Virus record (IMG/VR): IMGVR_UViG_3300009701_000004
Coordinates: 1 to 64,000 of that record
Reading direction: 5' to 3' (one strand)
Length of the DNA stretch: 64,000 nucleotides
DNA from: a virus
The notes under the pieces were generated by a model. That model ran no database searches. It saw nothing but the letters and a program-made list of their open reading frames with translations, and was not told the DNA's origin. Of the stretch, positions 292 through 46,005 are shown in pieces. Each line of letters opens with the position of its first letter. Position 1 is the first letter of the stretch. Both the position numbers and the translations under genes were made by a program.

Positions 292-300
292 TGGTATAAG
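292..300 (+). promoter_or_regulatory. TGGTATAAG promoter motif (accessory/early class) heading the RT operon
   Basis: The same 9-mer or a one-mismatch variant occurs at 13 other intergenic sites, each oriented toward accessory ORFs or the candidate ncRNA. Confidence 0.75.
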
Positions 301-369
301 ATAGTTGCAAAATTCTTATCTTTTTCGTTTAAATCAAATCACAAAGAAATTATAAAAAGAACAATAAGA

Positions 370-507
370 ATGACTAAGATTTTGAATATCATCAAATTAT
401 GCTTGGATTTAGGAATTACCGCTATCGATATGATTTGCAATTTTATAAAGATTTATCGGGAAACTATCGCCGAATTTTTTAAGGGGCGGGGATTGCGGCA
501 AGCTTAA
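370..507 (+). CDS. small 45-aa ORF (MTKILNIIKLCLDLGITAIDMICNFIKIYRETIAEFFKGRGLRQA), first in the RT operon; may be non-coding
   Basis: Hand-translated ATG370 to TAA507 downstream of the promoter; no clear Shine-Dalgarno (SD). Confidence 0.35.
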   Translation: MTKILNIIKLCLDLGITAIDMICNFIKIYRETIAEFFKGRGLRQA

Positions 508-563
508 TTTTTTATTAATAGATTAACAGGGTAGTCAAGTTACTGACTGCAATAAGGAGTTGA

Positions 564-1091
564 ATGAGTACACGAGTAATAGAACCTAAATTCTCCTCTC
601 CCACTTTTCGATTAAAACCCAGTACTTACGTAGTAACCAATGGTCAAATTTTTAGTTACTACGCAATCAAAATTGAAGATGAAACTACGGAAGCACCTAT
701 TTTCAGATTCAAGCAGTCACCTCCAGTAATACGAGATGGAGTAGTTGCTATAAAGAAAAAACTTTACTTTGTAACAACCAAAGATTTGGTGCGGGGTATT
801 GTTAGAAAATCAAGAGAAATAGGATTAGAGGAGTTAACCGGTAATGACAGAACAGCAATCACTGAGCAATCCAATCGAGTATCTTCATCAGAAAATGGGG
901 ACTCTAGCGGAACAGCCCTTCCAAGTGAAGACCAATCAGGAGCTAGCGAGTTTGCTACGTTGGAAATCAACGAAGCTAATGACTCTCTTGAGCCTGAACA
1001 AGTCCGAGCATTACACGACCTTGTACTTAAAGAAGAAGGCAAGGCCTGGGGCGAATGGGCAGAGGAGTGGGAAATTTCGGATCATCCATAA
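564..1091 (+). CDS. hypothetical protein, RT partner ORF overlapping the RT 5' end by 248 nt
   Basis: SD TAAGGAG before ATG564; basic N-half and acidic, Trp-containing C-half. Confidence 0.65.
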   Translation: MSTRVIEPKFSSPTFRLKPSTYVVTNGQIFSYYAIKIEDETTEAPIFRFKQSPPVIRDGVVAIKKKLYFVTTKDLVRGIVRKSREIGLEELTGNDRTAITEQSNRVSSSENGDSSGTALPSEDQSGASEFATLEINEANDSLEPEQVRALHDLVLKEEGKAWGEWAEEWEISDHP

Positions 1092-1971
1092 CCCCGATAA
1101 CTTAATGCGGATAATGCAGAGACGTATTCTAGGAGCTATCCTTAACAAAGTAGAGGTCCCGGACTACATCCATGCATTTGAAAAAGATCGTAGCATCCCC
1201 GAAATGGCTGCACAGCATATTAACAAATTTGTTGTAATCAGCTTAGATCTTAAAGATTACTTCGGAAGCATTAAACAATCTCATTTGAATGTAATGTTTA
1301 ACAGGTTGGGGTTTTCAGATGGGGCTGCCACGACATTATCGGAAGTCTGTACCTATAAGTCATTTGTACCTCAAGGGGCTTTAACGAGTCCTAAGATAAG
1401 TAACATCATCACCATGCTAACATTCGGCCCGAAGGTAAAAGAGTTCTGTGATGCTCACGGACTAACTCTGACAATCTTTGCCGATGACATCACTATATCC
1501 AGTACTCGAAAACTCACAGGTGAAAACGGAACTTTATCCGTTACTCAGGTTATTCAAACTATAAAAGGATATCTAGAAGAGTTCAGATTCAAGTTAAATC
1601 GGGAAAAAATTAAAGTGATGAGCAACTATCAACGGCAATATGTTTGTGGGGCCGTTGTTAATCAAAAAGTTAATTTGCAAAAAACTGAACGTAATAAACT
1701 CAGAGCCATAGTTCACAATTGCCGCAAAAATGGCATAGAAGCTGAAGCTGTTAAAAGTGGTATGACCACATCAGAATTCAGCTCCAAAATTATGGGGCAT
1801 CTTAACTGGTACTCGCAGCTTAACCCAACTGCGGGCAACATTGAAAAAGCAAAGTTTAAGGAAGTCGCTGTGGAGCTTTGCCAACCCAGCGCAGATCAAG
1901 TAGTTCCAGGAGTTATCAATTTGGAGGGGGTAGCTAGTCAACCCAAATCTCCAGAAGTAGCTCCCTGGTAA
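844..1971 (+). CDS. retron-like reverse transcriptase
   Basis: Motifs KFRIIHNP, IHAF, MAAQH (retron region X NAxxH), LDLKDYFGSI, PQGALTSPKISN, catalytic FADD and VCGAVVN (retron region Y VTG); SD GAGGAG at 828-833. Confidence 0.92.
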   Translation: MTEQQSLSNPIEYLHQKMGTLAEQPFQVKTNQELASLLRWKSTKLMTLLSLNKSEHYTTLYLKKKARPGANGQRSGKFRIIHNPDNLMRIMQRRILGAILNKVEVPDYIHAFEKDRSIPEMAAQHINKFVVISLDLKDYFGSIKQSHLNVMFNRLGFSDGAATTLSEVCTYKSFVPQGALTSPKISNIITMLTFGPKVKEFCDAHGLTLTIFADDITISSTRKLTGENGTLSVTQVIQTIKGYLEEFRFKLNREKIKVMSNYQRQYVCGAVVNQKVNLQKTERNKLRAIVHNCRKNGIEAEAVKSGMTTSEFSSKIMGHLNWYSQLNPTAGNIEKAKFKEVAVELCQPSADQVVPGVINLEGVASQPKSPEVAPW

Positions 1972-2045
1972 TCTGCTAAACGGGCTGAAAAGATAAGTCT
2001 TAACCTTTAGGTACACACAACGATTTGAGCCTAAAGGCATTACTC

Positions 2046-2075
2046 AGACGGGTTTAACACCACCCGTCTTTTTTA
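2046..2075 (+). terminator. intrinsic terminator of the RT operon
   Basis: AGACGGGT/ACCCGTCT stem followed by a T tract. Confidence 0.8.
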
Positions 2076-2158
2076 GCTTTTTCAAGTTAAGGCTCAAAAA
2101 TTGGTATAAGTATATTGAAGTAAAAAACACTTTAAAAATTTACTACTGGGAGCATCAA

Positions 2159-10871: not shown

Positions 10872-11119
10872 TGTTTACTCCTGTAATTGTTTTTAATTGT
10901 AGTAGAGGTGGAGTGGGCACGATGAGAGGGCGGGTATGGCAATCCGTTTCTACGAGCATGTAATCTTTTTAACTTTTCTCTATAATCCCTATGGGCAGTA
11001 TGTACAGCAGAAATTCTGTCTTTGGTATCTAATATAGTGCCTACGATATCATCAGCATCCATTTCCCGTTTAACCAATTTGTGAATCTTGGCTATCTTTT
11101 CTAGGTATTTATTAATCAT
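10868..11119 (-). CDS. small basic protein with N-terminal MINKYLEKIA tag (putative internal head protein)
   Basis: Motif shared with other head-cluster proteins; overlaps both neighbours by 4 nt. Confidence 0.7.
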   Translation of the reverse strand: MINKYLEKIAKIHKLVKREMDADDIVGTILDTKDRISAVHTAHRDYREKLKRLHARRNGLPYPPSHRAHSTSTTIKNNYRSKQ

Positions 11120-12021
11120 GAGTACTCGCTCGGGAAATCACTAATTCTTGTTACTAACTGATTTTCAACATCGCCCTTAGCTAATTGAGTAATTTTTAAC
11201 ATTTGGCGTACGGTACGACCTTGTAATTCAGTTGGTTGTATTTGTTCTATTTTGTAAACGTCCCAATTTCCACTACGAACTATAATGTCATCGGGATGCA
11301 GTTCGGGCATGCTTATAGTCCATGCACTTGTTTGGTTAGGTTCAAATACCCCGAAGTAAGTTTTAGAATACTCAGAAGGAGAGGCATCATACTGTAAATA
11401 GCAAGGGGCTGCTTCAAAATACCCACCGTCAAAACTCGTACCCATACATTCTACGCAATGATCCATTATAACTTTTTCAGCCTTAAAGTCCCAGCAAATG
11501 GAGCATCTAGCACCGTAGTCTTTCCTACGGAAAGCATAAGTTTTATTGCCTACAAATTTACTTAAAAGAATATGTTCTCTACGTTGAATCTCGTGGCTAC
11601 GTATTTCTACCCATTTACGTTGATGAGTTAGCCAACTTGATCTTGGAGATTTAACTGTAGCGTTACCGTGACTAAGCAGTATGGCCTCAACTATGTACCA
11701 TCCTTTATGAAATTTACGATATTCTTGAGTCTCTGTATCAAGTAGATAAGTTCCAGTAAGAGGAGCTTGATTTACTCTTTGAAAATTCTCAAAAGATTCC
11801 GTTGACGAAAAATAAACATTAAATAGGCACGATCCCCAAGTAGGAGGTACTGACCATTGAATGGCAATATGTTTAAACCAATATGGATAAACTTGAACCT
11901 TAATGTTCTCAGAAGATACAATCGTAGCTAGACTTGTAACAGGGTCATATTGACCGTTATGATTATAAGTAGCAGTCTGAAGTAAATAGCCAACATTGGG
12001 GGAGAATGAGAACGAAGCCAT
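11116..12021 (-). CDS. putative neck/head-closure protein with Cys-pair motifs
   Basis: CSIC...CVECMGT motifs; HPDDIIVR closure-like segment; late motif 5 nt before the ATG. Confidence 0.5.
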   Translation of the reverse strand: MASFSFSPNVGYLLQTATYNHNGQYDPVTSLATIVSSENIKVQVYPYWFKHIAIQWSVPPTWGSCLFNVYFSSTESFENFQRVNQAPLTGTYLLDTETQEYRKFHKGWYIVEAILLSHGNATVKSPRSSWLTHQRKWVEIRSHEIQRREHILLSKFVGNKTYAFRRKDYGARCSICWDFKAEKVIMDHCVECMGTSFDGGYFEAAPCYLQYDASPSEYSKTYFGVFEPNQTSAWTISMPELHPDDIIVRSGNWDVYKIEQIQPTELQGRTVRQMLKITQLAKGDVENQLVTRISDFPSEYS

Positions 12022-12108
12022 AACGGTATTTTAAGTCAATAGGCTTTTATATTTTTGGTATAAGTATAGTATGGTAAACATCTATTACTTACATTAAGAG
12101 GTATTATA

Positions 12109-12369
12109 ATGTCTTCATCGAATGTAGTAGGTTCCAACGCACGGGAGGATCAAATGATGTCTTTACGAGTCTGGGTAAAGGTAACCCTATTTGTAGCAGC
12201 TAGTATATTAATGATTCTGCCGTATATCGTACTGGCCTTTTGGCAACGTTGTATTAAAGGTCAACATTTTGAATCACCCGCCCCAGAACATGTCAAAGCA
12301 TTGCAAGACGAAATTGCTTCCTTGAACCCTGAACTTAAGGGCAAAGACCCGTCATCAAGAAAAATTTGA
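12109..12369 (+). CDS. small membrane protein
   Basis: One hydrophobic helix; TGGTATAAG at 12056-12064; SD GAGG; terminator at 12404-12434. Confidence 0.75.
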   Translation: MSSSNVVGSNAREDQMMSLRVWVKVTLFVAASILMILPYIVLAFWQRCIKGQHFESPAPEHVKALQDEIASLNPELKGKDPSSRKI

Positions 12370-12469
12370 AATGGGTATGTCAAAAGCTTTGCTTAGTACT
12401 AAGAGAAAACTCGGCTTATTTCGAGTTTTCTTTAGTTCAATAATCATAGATGCTTTTGGTATAAGAGAA

Positions 12470-12641
12470 ATATGAAAGACCTATGCTCGAATATACATTT
12501 TCGCACAGGTTGGCTGTAGTACAGATTTACTCCCGATAGTGCCCGCCGCAGTTTAGAAACTAGTTGAGTTCTAAACCCCAAGGTACTTACTTATGGCCAA
12601 CCTGATGCGAATTACTCCCGCTCGGTTGGCCTCTTTTTTTT
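12470..12641 (+). ncRNA. candidate structured non-coding RNA (about 170 nt)
   Basis: Own TGGTATAAG (12457-12465); long imperfect stem 12500-12522/12583-12611; inner hairpin 12551-12576; terminator 12595-12641; the only ATG ORFs seen are under 20 codons. Confidence 0.65.
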
Positions 12642-12645
12642 GCCA

Positions 12646-13080
12646 TTACCAAATTGGGAAGATTGCTTCATCGCTAGAAATTCCTCCCCAACCCGACTCC
12701 ATGTTCATTTCTATTTTTAATTCTTTTGCAGCAGGTTGAAATAAGGCCCTGAAGTTATTAGCAATATTAGTGTAAAGTTCCGATCTTTCTTCAATAGGGA
12801 CTTGTAAGCCGCCATCACTATATTGCATAGTATTACGAGCCAGCAATGCTGCTTTCAAAGCATACGCGTGGTATAACGTAGCGTACAGCAGTATTGAGCT
12901 AGAAGGCATTGTGGCTCTGGTGAAGGCCGTTCTTGGAGACATGTTGTTGAATGTGTCTAAACCGTAGTCCATGCACATTGTAAGGAAAGTATCCGTCATC
13001 TCCTCCCCGTCTATCAAATAGTTATTGATAGGATAATCGGAAAGAGATTCGCGAATCATGTCAACCGAAAGATTAGCCAT
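12646..13080 (-). CDS. putative head-tail adaptor/neck protein
   Basis: 144 aa helical protein with RNTMQYSDGGLQV segment; virion gene context. Confidence 0.5.
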   Translation of the reverse strand: MANLSVDMIRESLSDYPINNYLIDGEEMTDTFLTMCMDYGLDTFNNMSPRTAFTRATMPSSSILLYATLYHAYALKAALLARNTMQYSDGGLQVPIEERSELYTNIANNFRALFQPAAKELKIEMNMESGWGGISSDEAIFPIW

Positions 13081-13094
13081 TGTAGTTACTCAGT

Positions 13095-13538
13095 TTATGC
13101 TGCAGCGGGTGCTGCTGCTTTTGCTTTAGGCGCTGGCTTTGCTGGTTCAGCCTCAGGTTTGCCAATAGCTACACTTGTAGTACCTGGATTATGCATATTC
13201 ACTTTTTCGGCACCAGAAGCTGTTTCAACTTTTCCTGCTAATTCCTTACGGAGTTCTTCCTCCGACATTCCTGTAAATGGTTGATGCGCAGTAATCTTGA
13301 TTACTTGAGAATTAGGATTGTCCTCAGTAGGCTCTTCACTTGTGACTAACGCCCATCCGCGGCTTTCAGCATAAATGACTTCGCTGGAATCACGGTCTAA
13401 CGGGCTCAATGGCAGGTACTGTCCCGCGCCCATTTTTAGATCATGCTTAACAGTAAGATTGTGAGGTAAAAGATTTACGATGAACAGTGGCTTAGTATTT
13501 GCTACTGCTTCAAATTGGGGGTTTAATAGTTTGGTCAT
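13095..13538 (-). CDS. hypothetical virion-associated protein with Pro/Ala/Lys tail
   Basis: ORF within a late operon. Confidence 0.6.
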   Translation of the reverse strand: MTKLLNPQFEAVANTKPLFIVNLLPHNLTVKHDLKMGAGQYLPLSPLDRDSSEVIYAESRGWALVTSEEPTEDNPNSQVIKITAHQPFTGMSEEELRKELAGKVETASGAEKVNMHNPGTTSVAIGKPEAEPAKPAPKAKAAAPAAA

Positions 13539-13902: not shown

Positions 13903-13933
13903 AATGCATTATTTTAACTTAAAAGGGGTTGCA

Positions 13934-14521
13934 ATGAATTTTCCAGAAGATTTTGAATTAATAAATAAACGTATCGTAGAAAACCATGGTACATTGTGCC
14001 GTAATGGTCAACTTTATGTTGAAGAACCTTTACTGGGATATAAGAAGGTTTTCACATATGGATCTCGACATGATGATTTAATGCATCTACACGGAGTCGA
14101 AGCGGTAAAGAGATACATGGATGCCCCTGCGGTAGCAACTATTATAATCCCCAAAGGGTCTCTGTTAAACCTGGCCCAGAATTTGCTAAATAAATTTAGA
14201 GCTAGTCAAGCAATTTGCCAATCTATTGAGCGCATACCTGGTAAAGGTACGGCTTCTATAGCTAGATCAGGTCACAATTATAATTTCTACTATCGCTCAG
14301 TAACGGATACTAGACATGTATTAATTCTACGAGAACAACCGTCTGATCAAGAAAAAATGAAAAATTTATATGCATTGGAAGCCCCCTTGAATTTGGAGAA
14401 TTTAAGAAACCAATACGTAGTTAAGCCAGAAAAGCCTTTTAATACTAACATTGATGAATGTGCTTCTGGCATTCATTTCTTCGTGAATAGATATGAAGCA
14501 GAACAATACAACGACTTTTAA
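13934..14521 (+). CDS. CxxGIHFF family protein (DUF5758-like), paralogue 1; start moved to ATG13934
   Basis: IIPKGS.LNL, KFRASQA, ECASGIHFF. Confidence 0.7.
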   Translation: MNFPEDFELINKRIVENHGTLCRNGQLYVEEPLLGYKKVFTYGSRHDDLMHLHGVEAVKRYMDAPAVATIIIPKGSLLNLAQNLLNKFRASQAICQSIERIPGKGTASIARSGHNYNFYYRSVTDTRHVLILREQPSDQEKMKNLYALEAPLNLENLRNQYVVKPEKPFNTNIDECASGIHFFVNRYEAEQYNDF

Positions 14522-19610: not shown

Positions 19611-19749
19611 CACTAAGTAATACTAAACCGGGGGGGGGGATAACCGACCCGGTTTTTTTTAGTTTTCATTAAGATATTAAGGTTTTGGTATAAGTAAAGT
19701 GTTAAAGGTTGTTTTTCTTTTTACACTTACATTACATCGGGAGATGCAA

Positions 19750-36811: not shown

Positions 36812-36832
36812 TTTTAATCTACGGGAGTAAAA

Positions 36833-44472: not shown

Positions 44473-46005
44473 ATGAATACAGAAGAAGCAATTAAAGTAT
44501 TGAAAGAAATACATAGAGACAAAAATTACTCCTGGGATAAATTTGTCTATGTCAATGCACGCACTAAAGGCATAGTAACTTGTAATGTTGAAGGACACGG
44601 GGACTTTTTAGCCCTATATGATTCCCTCAGAAAAGGTCATGGGTGTAGATTTTGTGGATATCAAACTGCCCGAGTAAGTAAATCTTATACTACAGACGAA
44701 TTCGTAAAACTTGGAAGAGAACGTAATACGGATATGAGAGGAGATACTTATCTGTACGATAAGACCCTTTATGTAAATAGAGAAACCAGGGTTACTATTA
44801 CCTGTAGAATTCACGGAGATTTTTCAGTTTCCCCTGCCAACCATTTGAACAATTTTACGGGGTGTAAGGAATGCGGAAAAATCAAGGCCCACTCTAAATT
44901 CTTAAAGCCTGTTGAACAATTAAAAGAAGAAATATCTAAGATACTGGATCCTGAAAAATACACTCTGGTCAACACGGATAACTATACTAGTAATAAATCT
45001 TACGTAACTATGAATTGTAAGGAACATGGGGACTGGATTACTAAACCTAACTGGATACTAAGTAGAGGCACTGGGTGCGTTAAATGTACTAATTCAGGTA
45101 TATCCAGAGGTGAAACGGAGTTACTTGAGTACATAAAATCTCTAGGGTTTACTGATATAGAACCTGGGGGCAGAAGAATAATCCCTCCTCTAGAAATGGA
45201 TATGGTACTAGAGTCTAAGAAGATAGCTTTCGAATATAACGGTCTGTATTTTCATTCTGAAGCTATGGGTAAAACCGCGGAATACCATTTCGATAAAACG
45301 GTATTAGCTAAAAGAAAAGGGTATAGATTAATACAGATATACGAAGATGAGTGGGTACATAACAAAGACTTGGTGAAGATAAAAATAGCCCACATATTGG
45401 GAGTTAATCCGGGTAAGAAGTTATATGCTAGAAAGTTATTCTTGGATAGGGTTTCTTTTAACGAGGCAAAGACATTTTTTGAAACCAATCATATACAGGG
45501 TTCCCCTCCTAATCATAAGATATGCTATGGACTATTTGAAGACGGAGTATTAGTAGCAGCTATGTCTTTCGGTCCCCTGAGATTCAATGTAGAGAATGCT
45601 CCTGAAAATGCCTATGAATTATACCGGTATGCTACTTCTAAAGTATACTATGTAATAGGAGGATTTTCTCGGCTGCTAAAAAATTTTGTTAGGGATAATA
45701 ATGACATTGGGAAGATTTACAGTTTCTCAGATAGAAGATGGTCTGTAGGAGAAGTATACAAGAATAATGGGTTCTCTTATATTGGATACACTAAGCCAAG
45801 TTATGATTACACCGATAATCAAGCTAGGCGATACAATAGGCAGAATTTTATGAAGCAACGTATGCCAGAGTTAGTTAAAAAAGGTATCTTTAAATCCTTC
45901 GACCCTGATAAAACAGAAGTGGAAAATTGCAAAGACAATAATCTATACAGGATATGGAATTGTGGTATGGACAAATGGGAATTGGATCTGTCTCGTTCAA
46001 TATAG
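44473..46005 (+). CDS. free-standing homing-endonuclease-like protein (CxxHG Zn repeats, Vsr-like nuclease, GNAT-like C-terminal region)
   Basis: Three C..HG...GCxxC repeats, SRGETEL, EMDMVL...AFEYNGLYFHS, ELYRYA...GGFSRLL. Confidence 0.75.
   Translation: MNTEEAIKVLKEIHRDKNYSWDKFVYVNARTKGIVTCNVEGHGDFLALYDSLRKGHGCRFCGYQTARVSKSYTTDEFVKLGRERNTDMRGDTYLYDKTLYVNRETRVTITCRIHGDFSVSPANHLNNFTGCKECGKIKAHSKFLKPVEQLKEEISKILDPEKYTLVNTDNYTSNKSYVTMNCKEHGDWITKPNWILSRGTGCVKCTNSGISRGETELLEYIKSLGFTDIEPGGRRIIPPLEMDMVLESKKIAFEYNGLYFHSEAMGKTAEYHFDKTVLAKRKGYRLIQIYEDEWVHNKDLVKIKIAHILGVNPGKKLYARKLFLDRVSFNEAKTFFETNHIQGSPPNHKICYGLFEDGVLVAAMSFGPLRFNVENAPENAYELYRYATSKVYYVIGGFSRLLKNFVRDNNDIGKIYSFSDRRWSVGEVYKNNGFSYIGYTKPSYDYTDNQARRYNRQNFMKQRMPELVKKGIFKSFDPDKTEVENCKDNNLYRIWNCGMDKWELDLSRSI

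Follow-up and report, generated by a model that had tools for sequence, protein, structure and literature searches.

Between two virion genes of an uncultured soil or moss phage, a promoter of the class that elsewhere in the genome heads small genes opens onto about 170 nt with no plausible ORF. The question is what this unit encodes and what its product could do. To our knowledge, functions have been assigned to only a few of the small RNAs that virulent phages make, and uncultured phage groups account for almost none of them. The locus, a compact candidate of this kind, combines a single promoter with one predicted rod-like fold and one terminator, which the rod is able to inactivate. The window analyzed covers the initial 64 kb of an IMG/VR virus record that is 91 kb long; in it, the unit spans 12457-12641 on the plus strand. 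An earlier note on this DNA had described a free-standing structured RNA and had offered three candidate roles, namely, a template for the reverse transcriptase (RT) of the phage, a 6S-like decoy of RNA polymerase, and a regulatory small RNA (sRNA). Our analysis shows the unit to be a genuine non-coding cassette, complete in itself, in which a terminator and an antiterminator compete, and it is probably regulatory.

Promoter, coding capacity, and genomic setting

The extended -10 element at the head of the unit, TGGTATAAG, is strongly over-represented in this DNA. Eleven exact copies lie in the 64-kb window compared with 0.88 expected, a number that none of 100 shuffled sequences reached, and the copies share their flanks, which consist of a TTCAA-like element followed, after 15 to 17 nt, by ttTGGTATAAGta. 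Over the whole 91-kb record, the promoter motif is found 22 times on the plus strand and once on the minus strand, and nearly all of these motifs head a small ORF. The copy at 12457 is of this early class: its extended -10 is exact, a -35-like element lies at the appropriate distance, and it is oriented along the early strand. It is also the only one of the 23 motifs in the record that lacks a plausible ORF behind it. The ~170 nt that follow contain stops in all six frames, and the sole frames within the unit are one of 15 codons at the predicted 5′ end and one of 48 codons that crosses the terminator. The over-representation of the motif and the six-frame stops thus bear out the initial reading of a promoter that drives about 170 nt without a real ORF. 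The ATG of the 15-codon frame coincides with the predicted transcript start, A12472, and its stop (12517-12519) falls inside the 5′ arm of the long helix described below (Table 1), which makes this frame a candidate leaderless micro-ORF.

Table 1. Features of the RNA unit and its flanks (coordinates of the 64-kb window)
Feature	Coordinates	Strand	Basis or remark
gp234-like late virion gene	11116-12021	-	301 aa; 36.6% identity to Arash gp234, E = 8e-49
Neighboring early cassette P12056	12056-12369 (promoter 12056)	+	Part of the same insertion as the RNA cassette
P12056 ORF	12109-12369 (start possibly 12154)	+	Small single-pass membrane protein
Intrinsic terminator of the P12056 cassette	12402-12434	+	Hairpin read from sequence; also in the cmscan alignment
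-35-like element, TTCAAT	12436-12441	+	Precedes the TGG in the extended -10 by 15 nt; promoter-context consensus
Extended -10, TGGTATAAG, early-class promoter motif	12457-12465	+	Over-representation, strand bias, gene-head position
Predicted transcript start (A12472) and 15-codon frame	12472-12519	+	Seventh base after the -10 (predicted)
Long helix, 5′ arm (antiterminator)	12500-12521	+	Predicted pair list
One-sided 16-nt bulge	12522-12537	+	Holds UUACUCCCG copy 1 (12527-12535) and unpaired A12523/G12524
Inner domain	12538-12587	+	Helix 12538-12543/12582-12587; 8-bp hairpin 12551-12558/12569-12576
Long helix, 3′ arm	12588-12611	+	Positions 12595-12611 double as the 5′ half of the terminator hairpin
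Intrinsic terminator	12595-12641	+	Stem GGCCAACC/GGTTGGCC plus inner pairs, then T8 at 12634-12641
gp233-like late virion gene	12646-13080	-	144 aa; 42% identity to Arash gp233, E = 5e-43

The flanking genes resemble gp233 and gp234 of Salmonella phage Arash, which are annotated there as virion structural proteins and lie next to each other, gp234 following gp233 after 3 nt. In the phage studied here, the two genes are 624 bp apart (12022-12645), and this stretch contains two early cassettes, oriented oppositely to the virion genes and each with its own terminator. The T-run and TAG that end the upstream cassette, P12056, abut the -35 element of the RNA promoter, forming a composite terminator-promoter junction. 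This junction is stereotyped (T-run, TAG, TCAAT, and then TGGTATAAG), and it is repeated in the phage record and many times in a related genome, G001. At the other edge, the gp233-like gene converges on the RNA unit and ends 4 nt from its T-run. The next plus-strand gene starts at 13934, beyond a gap of 1.29 kb that is occupied by three minus-strand virion genes, and a transcript reading through the terminator would be antisense to the gp233-like gene. The RNA unit is a lineage-specific cassette inserted into a conserved virion gene pair.

Some further observations concern the surroundings of the cassette. A plus-strand hairpin at 13102-13118 could mark the end of a read-through RNA; it was given no weight because it sits in a repetitive, Ala-rich coding stretch whose length differs between samples. 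The gp234-like gene seems to have a short upstream motif of its own, TTAAAATA. The sequencing runs with the fullest cover of the phage are labeled as moss metagenomes, and one of these runs may represent the sample from which the record came; no RNA run was among those listed for the phage.

Rod and terminator folds

Folding of the unit predicts a rod closed by a long helix of 22 bp with two 1-nt bulges on its 3′ side. This rod (121 nt; 12495-12615) has a free energy of -42.4 kcal/mol (z = -5.6), a stability that was not equaled by any of 200 shuffled sequences. The terminator hairpin at 12595-12631 reaches -19.9 kcal/mol (z = -6.2) and is followed by UC and U8. Its apical loop measures 9 nt (12609-12617), and a simple terminator scan that considered only loops of 3 to 8 nt missed it. 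The stems, the inner hairpin, and the terminator of the initial description are thus all found at their positions in the pair list, with supporting energies and z-scores, and A12523 and G12524, the AG noted past the 5′ arm, are likewise unpaired in the predicted fold. A 9-nt sequence, UUACUCCCG, occurs twice in the RNA: the first copy lies in the one-sided bulge, and the second (12612-12620) begins in the apical loop of the terminator and continues into its inner stem. A 9-nt repeat is only mildly unusual for such a sequence, being equaled in 13 of 300 shuffles.

The rod and the terminator are mutually exclusive, as both need positions 12595-12611 and share the 8-nt segment GGCCAACC. Folding of the whole transcript gave -48.9 kcal/mol for the rod and -47.3 kcal/mol when the terminator was enforced, the latter being nearly as stable because the freed 5′ arm refolds locally. 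The proposal of two alternative folds was therefore confirmed at the level of predicted structure. At equilibrium, the terminator pairs of the whole transcript have a probability of ~6.6%, and in simulated folding of the growing chain the rod was retained up to 12632, just short of the T-run. The rod is thus predicted to be the default fold, both thermodynamically and cotranscriptionally, with the proviso that thermodynamic prediction of the winning fold is unreliable. The reverse strand folds almost equally well (rod, -41.1 kcal/mol; hairpin, -21.2 kcal/mol), with only 3 of the 38 pairs being G-U, so that assignment of the unit to the plus strand rests on the promoter and on the U-tract, which follows the hairpin on that strand only.

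Distribution of the unit and its insertion site

The Infernal search that the earlier note had called for returned no relevant Rfam family, either at gathering scores over the whole window or at E values up to 10 over 12300-12750. The lone Rfam match paired the terminator of the P12056 cassette with a Brucella sRNA model, far below cutoff. ARAGORN detected no tRNA or tmRNA, and blastn against GenBank phages left the unit unmatched. Scanning IMG/VR for the conserved stem pair produced 31 matches, all attributable to chance by blastn, and a scan of genome contigs for both motif copies, spaced as in the unit, produced more than 120, none of them homologous. As far as these searches reach, the unit is an orphan in sequence, without known relatives. 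Two origins were considered and rejected: a MITE-like element, on the grounds of its single copy and lack of relatives, and a decayed duplicate of the P12056 cassette, on comparison with that cassette.

Using the 144-aa flanking protein as a query, we found six uncultured relatives (three IMG/VR loci and three metagenome loci); a second flanking-protein query added none from IMG/VR or the genome contigs. The RNA unit is absent from all six. In two of them (L037 and L038), the gp233-like and gp234-like genes are adjacent with no intervening element, and in two others (L003 and L036), a simple GC hairpin alone separates them. Arash and these four loci thus lack the insertion, and the remaining two (L002 and L004) carry there a different cassette, oriented as the one studied here, in which an early promoter is followed by a non-coding stretch of ~140 nt and then by a strong terminator. 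The RNA of this sister cassette folds into successive hairpins whose loops are C-rich (UCUCC and ACCUCCC); its terminator is unopposed, and it has no closing helix. Covariance models of the two RNAs (R1 for the RNA studied here and R2 for the sister RNA) did not cross-match, and R2 was unmatched in this record; by these models, the RNAs that occupy the shared junction are unrelated.

Between L002 and L004, the junction RNA is 95% identical, compared with 79 to 84% for the flanking genes and 55 to 64% for their third codon positions. On these identities, the sister RNA gene is under strong purifying selection. This conservation shows the junction to be a site of functional RNA genes, and it provides the best, though indirect, argument that the 12457-12641 unit is functional. 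Since the sister terminator is unopposed, the two lineages do not have the switch in common. In a second study, a contig was recovered that includes the entire stretch at ~96% identity; the T-run of its copy is shorter by one T, and the unit contains no other indel.

Base pairing with phage ribosome binding sites

Ribosome binding sites (RBSs) of the GGGAG type, mostly CGGGAG, are enriched among genes lying up to 700 nt downstream of early promoters (6/30 versus 2/84; Fisher p = 0.004). CUCCCG, which the RNA contains twice, is the exact complement of this early-class RBS. The match comprises 6 nt and the motif was picked after the data had been seen, which makes it suggestive only. Pfam provided no annotation for the genes with CGGGAG-type RBSs.

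Target predictions did not rise above background. Among the translation initiation regions of the phage, the best partner was ORF 36833, which has CGGGAGTAAA directly before its ATG; the predicted interaction of -20.8 kcal/mol was matched by 31% of shuffled seeds. Similarly, 7- and 8-mer complementarity to 22 early leaders did not exceed that of shuffles (p = 0.43 and 0.88). A type I toxin-antitoxin arrangement with the P12056 membrane protein was also considered and rejected, as complementarity to its mRNA was not above that of shuffles. The suggestion of a regulatory sRNA is what survives of the earlier interpretation: a free-standing, promoter-driven, structured, non-coding unit with two exclusive folds is what the analysis found, and this is the best general class for it. 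No target stands out above chance.

Early promoters are often followed directly by terminator-like hairpins, in 12 of 44 cases in G001 and 2 of 23 in the phage studied here, compared with 2.4 to 2.8% of random windows. From this frequency, regulated termination appears to be part of the early program.

Reverse transcriptase and 6S hypotheses

The window also encodes a protein at 844-1971 that matches Pfam RVT_1 (2.7e-20) and the PADLOC model RT_III-A (1.7e-64); its matches to NCBIfam retron models (1e-43 to 1e-51) all fall short of the respective cutoffs. By these profile matches, it is a retron-type RT. In known retrons, the RNA is encoded beside its RT, as a rule immediately upstream and within one transcription unit. 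Known retrons possess msr hairpins and a long msd template hairpin, with well over 100 nt between the paired arms. The earlier note had raised the idea that the RNA serves this enzyme in trans as an msr-msd-like template. In this reading, the RT would prime on G12524 and copy the enclosed strand into a small branched cDNA. In favor of this idea, the RT is of the retron type, the RNA has inverted repeats at its ends and an unpaired G, G12524, two bases past its 5′ arm, and no obvious classical msr-msd lies upstream of the RT, where in four of four phages the sequence is coding. It consists of a small ORF followed by a conserved ~90-aa domain, and this domain forms an in-frame fusion with the RT in G001 and G003. 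However, any long bulged hairpin would look alike in its paired ends and free G.

Several findings argue against the link. RT homologues with 57 to 58% identity occur in G001 (complete; 185 kb), G002, and G003, two of these three records being incomplete. In none of them was the RNA detected: blastn matched the promoter motif only, and the covariance model R1 had no match. The proposed co-occurrence of RNA and RT thus failed, a result qualified by the rapid divergence of retron RNAs. Moreover, the unit is not beside the RT, as msr-msd would be, but lies 10.5 kb from it with a promoter and a terminator of its own, and has no Rfam match. Between its paired arms are 66 nt (12522-12587; 60 by the arm limits of the earlier note) that contain a 6-bp helix and one 8-bp hairpin, and 60 to 66 nt are too few to accommodate msr hairpins together with the template stem of an msd. 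Finally, the different RNA of L002 and L004 occupies the same site without a closing helix, and directly downstream of the RT lies a non-coding hairpin-plus-terminator region of ~100 nt that is partly conserved, with a short motif common to this phage, G001, and G003. We consider a retron-like role very improbable and have dropped this tempting connection as unsupported; an RNA partner of the RT, if there is one, should be sought in the non-coding region beside it.

A 6S-like decoy, which would sequester RNA polymerase by mimicking an open promoter, merits next to no credence. In its favor, the RNA is rod-like, its ends are paired, and much of one strand is left unpaired in a single stretch, and it would suit the early reliance of the phage on a sigma-70-like promoter class. 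Against it, the unpaired region consists of 16 nt facing 0, that is, a bulge in one strand and not a two-sided bubble; the rod measures ~120 nt rather than ~180; and the 6S families of Rfam remained unmatched up to E = 10 in an RNA that is without relatives.

Proposed mechanism and alternative explanations

The reading that we favor, at a probability of roughly 40%, is that of an early base-pairing riboregulator with a conditional terminator, whose product would be a short RNA that bears a pair of anti-RBS motifs or, alternatively, a read-through antisense RNA. Transcription would start near 12472 and produce the rod, with its 22-bp closing helix, 16-nt bulge, inner helix, and 8-bp hairpin. 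Because the hairpin of the T8 terminator draws its 5′ half from the 3′ arm of the rod, the rod would act as an antiterminator. When it forms, as predicted by default, the polymerase would run on and generate an RNA antisense to the gp233-like gene. Occupation of the 5′ arm, by a ribosome on the leaderless 15-codon frame or by a pairing partner, would instead allow the terminator to form and release an RNA of ~170 nt that displays UUACUCCCG twice. Through base pairing, the riboregulator could then set the timing of early and late phage genes. In its most specific version, the output of a single early promoter would be sorted by 5′-arm occupancy into the anti-RBS RNA of ~170 nt or the antisense read-through, making the locus a timing device built of RNA only; taken with all of its parts, this version is unlikely. 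If the switch is real, it would illustrate how RNA by itself enables a phage to time or balance its early and late expression, and would also represent a small, portable conditional terminator.

The competition between helices need not be the point of the unit. It may encode a plain trans-acting sRNA that terminates normally at T8, with the competition being incidental or occurring after release, and whose two exposed copies of UUACUCCCG act on host or phage RBSs, in the manner of sRNAs with C-rich loops. We regard this as possible, if rather doubtful. The unit is a discrete promoter-to-terminator cassette with a long U-tail, the motif is duplicated in the bulge and the terminator loop and complements the early-class RBS CGGGAG, and the strongly conserved sister RNA is itself made of C-rich-loop hairpins with an unopposed terminator. 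Less easily accommodated are the phage targets, which are not above chance, and the blocking helix, which is much more stable than the terminator (-42.4 versus -19.9 kcal/mol) and is made first, an odd arrangement for a gene intended to terminate. It is unlikely, in our estimate, that the unit is a non-functional remnant, in which recombination at the repeated terminator-promoter junctions left 130 nt between a promoter and a terminator. Its edges are indeed the stereotyped junctions seen throughout the record and G001, no homologue was found in any database or relative searched, and gain and loss of cassettes mediated by PeSL elements is documented (PMC2839356). A leftover, though, would not be expected to fold 5.6 standard deviations beyond shuffles, with a helix that overlaps the terminator exactly. 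Neither is the unit a decayed copy of the P12056 cassette; it has been kept in a second genome that is ~4% diverged, and the same junction harbors a conserved RNA in L002 and L004.

The near-symmetry of the folds raises a further alternative, namely, that the element belongs to the other strand as the 3′ untranslated region of the gp233-like late mRNA, where it could serve as a stabilizer, an RNase III site, or a partial terminator ahead of the gp234-like gene, the plus-strand promoter being secondary. In favor of this role are the stability of the minus-strand RNA (rod, -41.1 kcal/mol; hairpin, -21.2 kcal/mol), the simple GC hairpin between the same genes in L003 and L036, and the apparent upstream motif of the gp234-like gene, TTAAAATA. 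Nevertheless, the U-tract is present on the plus strand only, the same strand bears an exact early promoter with its -35 at the right distance, and Arash, L037, and L038 need nothing between these genes, all of which render a minus-strand element quite improbable.

Comparison with known systems

RsaE and RoxS are sRNAs with C-rich loops that act as anti-Shine-Dalgarno regulators. Like them, the phage RNA repeats CUCCC motifs, complementary to RBSs, in unpaired places that include the terminator loop; unlike them, it has no homologue in Rfam, and its predicted phage targets are not above chance. The favored riboregulator with a conditional terminator also recalls attenuators and riboswitch platforms, in which exclusive helices compete for a shared segment, here of 8 nt, and the antiterminator is made first. 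A short 5′ frame with its stop inside the 5′ arm of the antiterminator is further reminiscent of leader-peptide attenuation. In contrast to attenuators, however, no sense gene lies directly downstream, the next one being 1.29 kb away past three opposite-strand genes. No ligand-binding fold of known riboswitches was recognized by Rfam, and the putative micro-ORF would need to be leaderless.

Among phages, a parallel is offered by PAK_P3, for which the portion of the published account considered here describes two small phage RNAs, sRNA1 and sRNA2, seen by RNA-seq, and early antisense RNAs over structural genes that are thought to silence these genes early in infection (PMC4933390). With PAK_P3 as portrayed there, our phage has in common a virulent type, a short non-coding unit in a gap of the structural region, an early promoter directed into late genes, and RNA-based timing of gene expression as the proposed function. 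The RNAs themselves differ, since we found no homology in sequence or structure to those of PAK_P3, and the RNA reported here is predicted from sequence. In that portion of the account, the PAK_P3 RNAs are not credited with a terminator that a helix upstream of it overrides (PMC4933390).

The architecture of the cassette can also be compared with the PeSL elements of T4-type phages, in which a composite of an early promoter with a terminator of the stem-loop type shuffles small genes (PMC2839356). The phage group and the motif are different here (TGGTATAAG with TTCAA and no GGGG/CCCC stem), and PeSL cassettes carry ORFans, whereas the RNA cassette is devoid of an ORF. The likeness lies in the junction pattern and the placement: a stereotyped terminator-promoter junction bounds small early cassettes, and lineage-specific content is placed within a conserved virion block.

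A candidate site for a possible RNA partner next to the reverse transcriptase

The retron-type reverse transcriptase (RT) operon is kept in three related phages at 57 to 58% identity, with the order early promoter, ~45-aa ORF, ~90-aa conserved domain, and RT. In the related phage records G001 and G003, the ~90-aa domain and the RT form one in-frame fusion (open frames of 427 to 429 aa). In the window, the two lie in different frames (564-1091 versus 844-1971), and the gene there is therefore either split or dependent on a frameshift. The non-coding stretch 3′ of the RT has a short AGGTACA-A-ACAAACG-like motif common to the window phage and G001/G003, and it is a better candidate site for any RNA partner of the RT than the structured RNA unit at 12457-12641.

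Locations of the features (L-numbers, loci of uncultured relatives)
Feature	Location	Strand	Remark
Retron-type RT operon	window 292-2077; L039, L040, L041		kept in three related phages
Non-coding stretch, ~100 nt	window 1972-2077; L040 and L041, just past the RT stop		hairpin and terminator
Sister-lineage RNA gene, ~140 nt	L002 4440-4592; L004 likewise; G001:62180-62336	minus strand of locus (L002)	unrelated to 12457-12641
Early ribosome-binding sites	window 2143-2158, 2760-2775, 12138-12153, 19683-19698, 36817-36832, 45938-45953		
Early promoters followed by hairpins, G001 (L056-L065), examples	155992, 152950, 142171, 136460, 70864, 60944		
Early promoters followed by hairpins, window's record	window 19686; record position 80141		
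TTAAAATA	window 12022-12035 and 13903-13920; equivalents in L002, L003	minus	

A different RNA gene at the same junction

The gene junction that holds the 12457-12641 unit in the window is occupied in the sister lineage by another RNA gene, composed of an early promoter, a run of C-rich-loop hairpins, and a strong terminator. This RNA is 95% identical between two phages, the flanking genes of which share 79 to 84%; an Rfam search with it returned no match.

Early promoters and their downstream elements

Across the whole record and G001, cassette junctions are stereotyped: a T-run, TAG, (T)TCAAT, 15 to 17 nt, and the extended −10 element TGGTATAAG, the strand bias of which is extreme (22:1 in the window's record and 1:43 in G001). 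A parallel exists in the PeSL modules of T4-type phages, and the junction may be what drives shuffling of the cassettes. At G001 ~153741 and 10385 (minus strand), the early promoter seemingly drives tRNA-like sequences directly (GTAACTCAGTTGGTAGAG...GGTTCGAATCC).

In G001, 12 of the 44 early promoters are followed within ~50 nt by a terminator-like hairpin and its U-run, as are 2 of the 23 in the window's record, against a background of 2.4 to 2.8% of random windows. This excess points to attenuation close to the promoter, and to an antitermination factor of some kind, in the phage group.

Early genes also have in common a distinctive ribosome-binding site, C(G/T)GGGAG followed by 5 to 6 nt, AA, and ATG, which is enriched behind TGGTATAAG promoters (6/30 versus 2/84). 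Judged by this motif, 12154 is more likely than 12109 to be the start of the 86-aa membrane-protein ORF.

Late virion genes

In the window phage and its relatives, TTAAAATA is found 5 to 8 nt upstream of the ATGs of late virion genes, and these genes lack a Shine-Dalgarno sequence. TTAAAATA may be a late promoter yielding nearly leaderless mRNAs. At window position 13104, within the Ala-rich C-terminal coding part of a 147-aa gene, a genome that a different study recovered, ~96% identical, carries 12 extra bases of a GCGGGT repeat; the repeat at this site varies in length.
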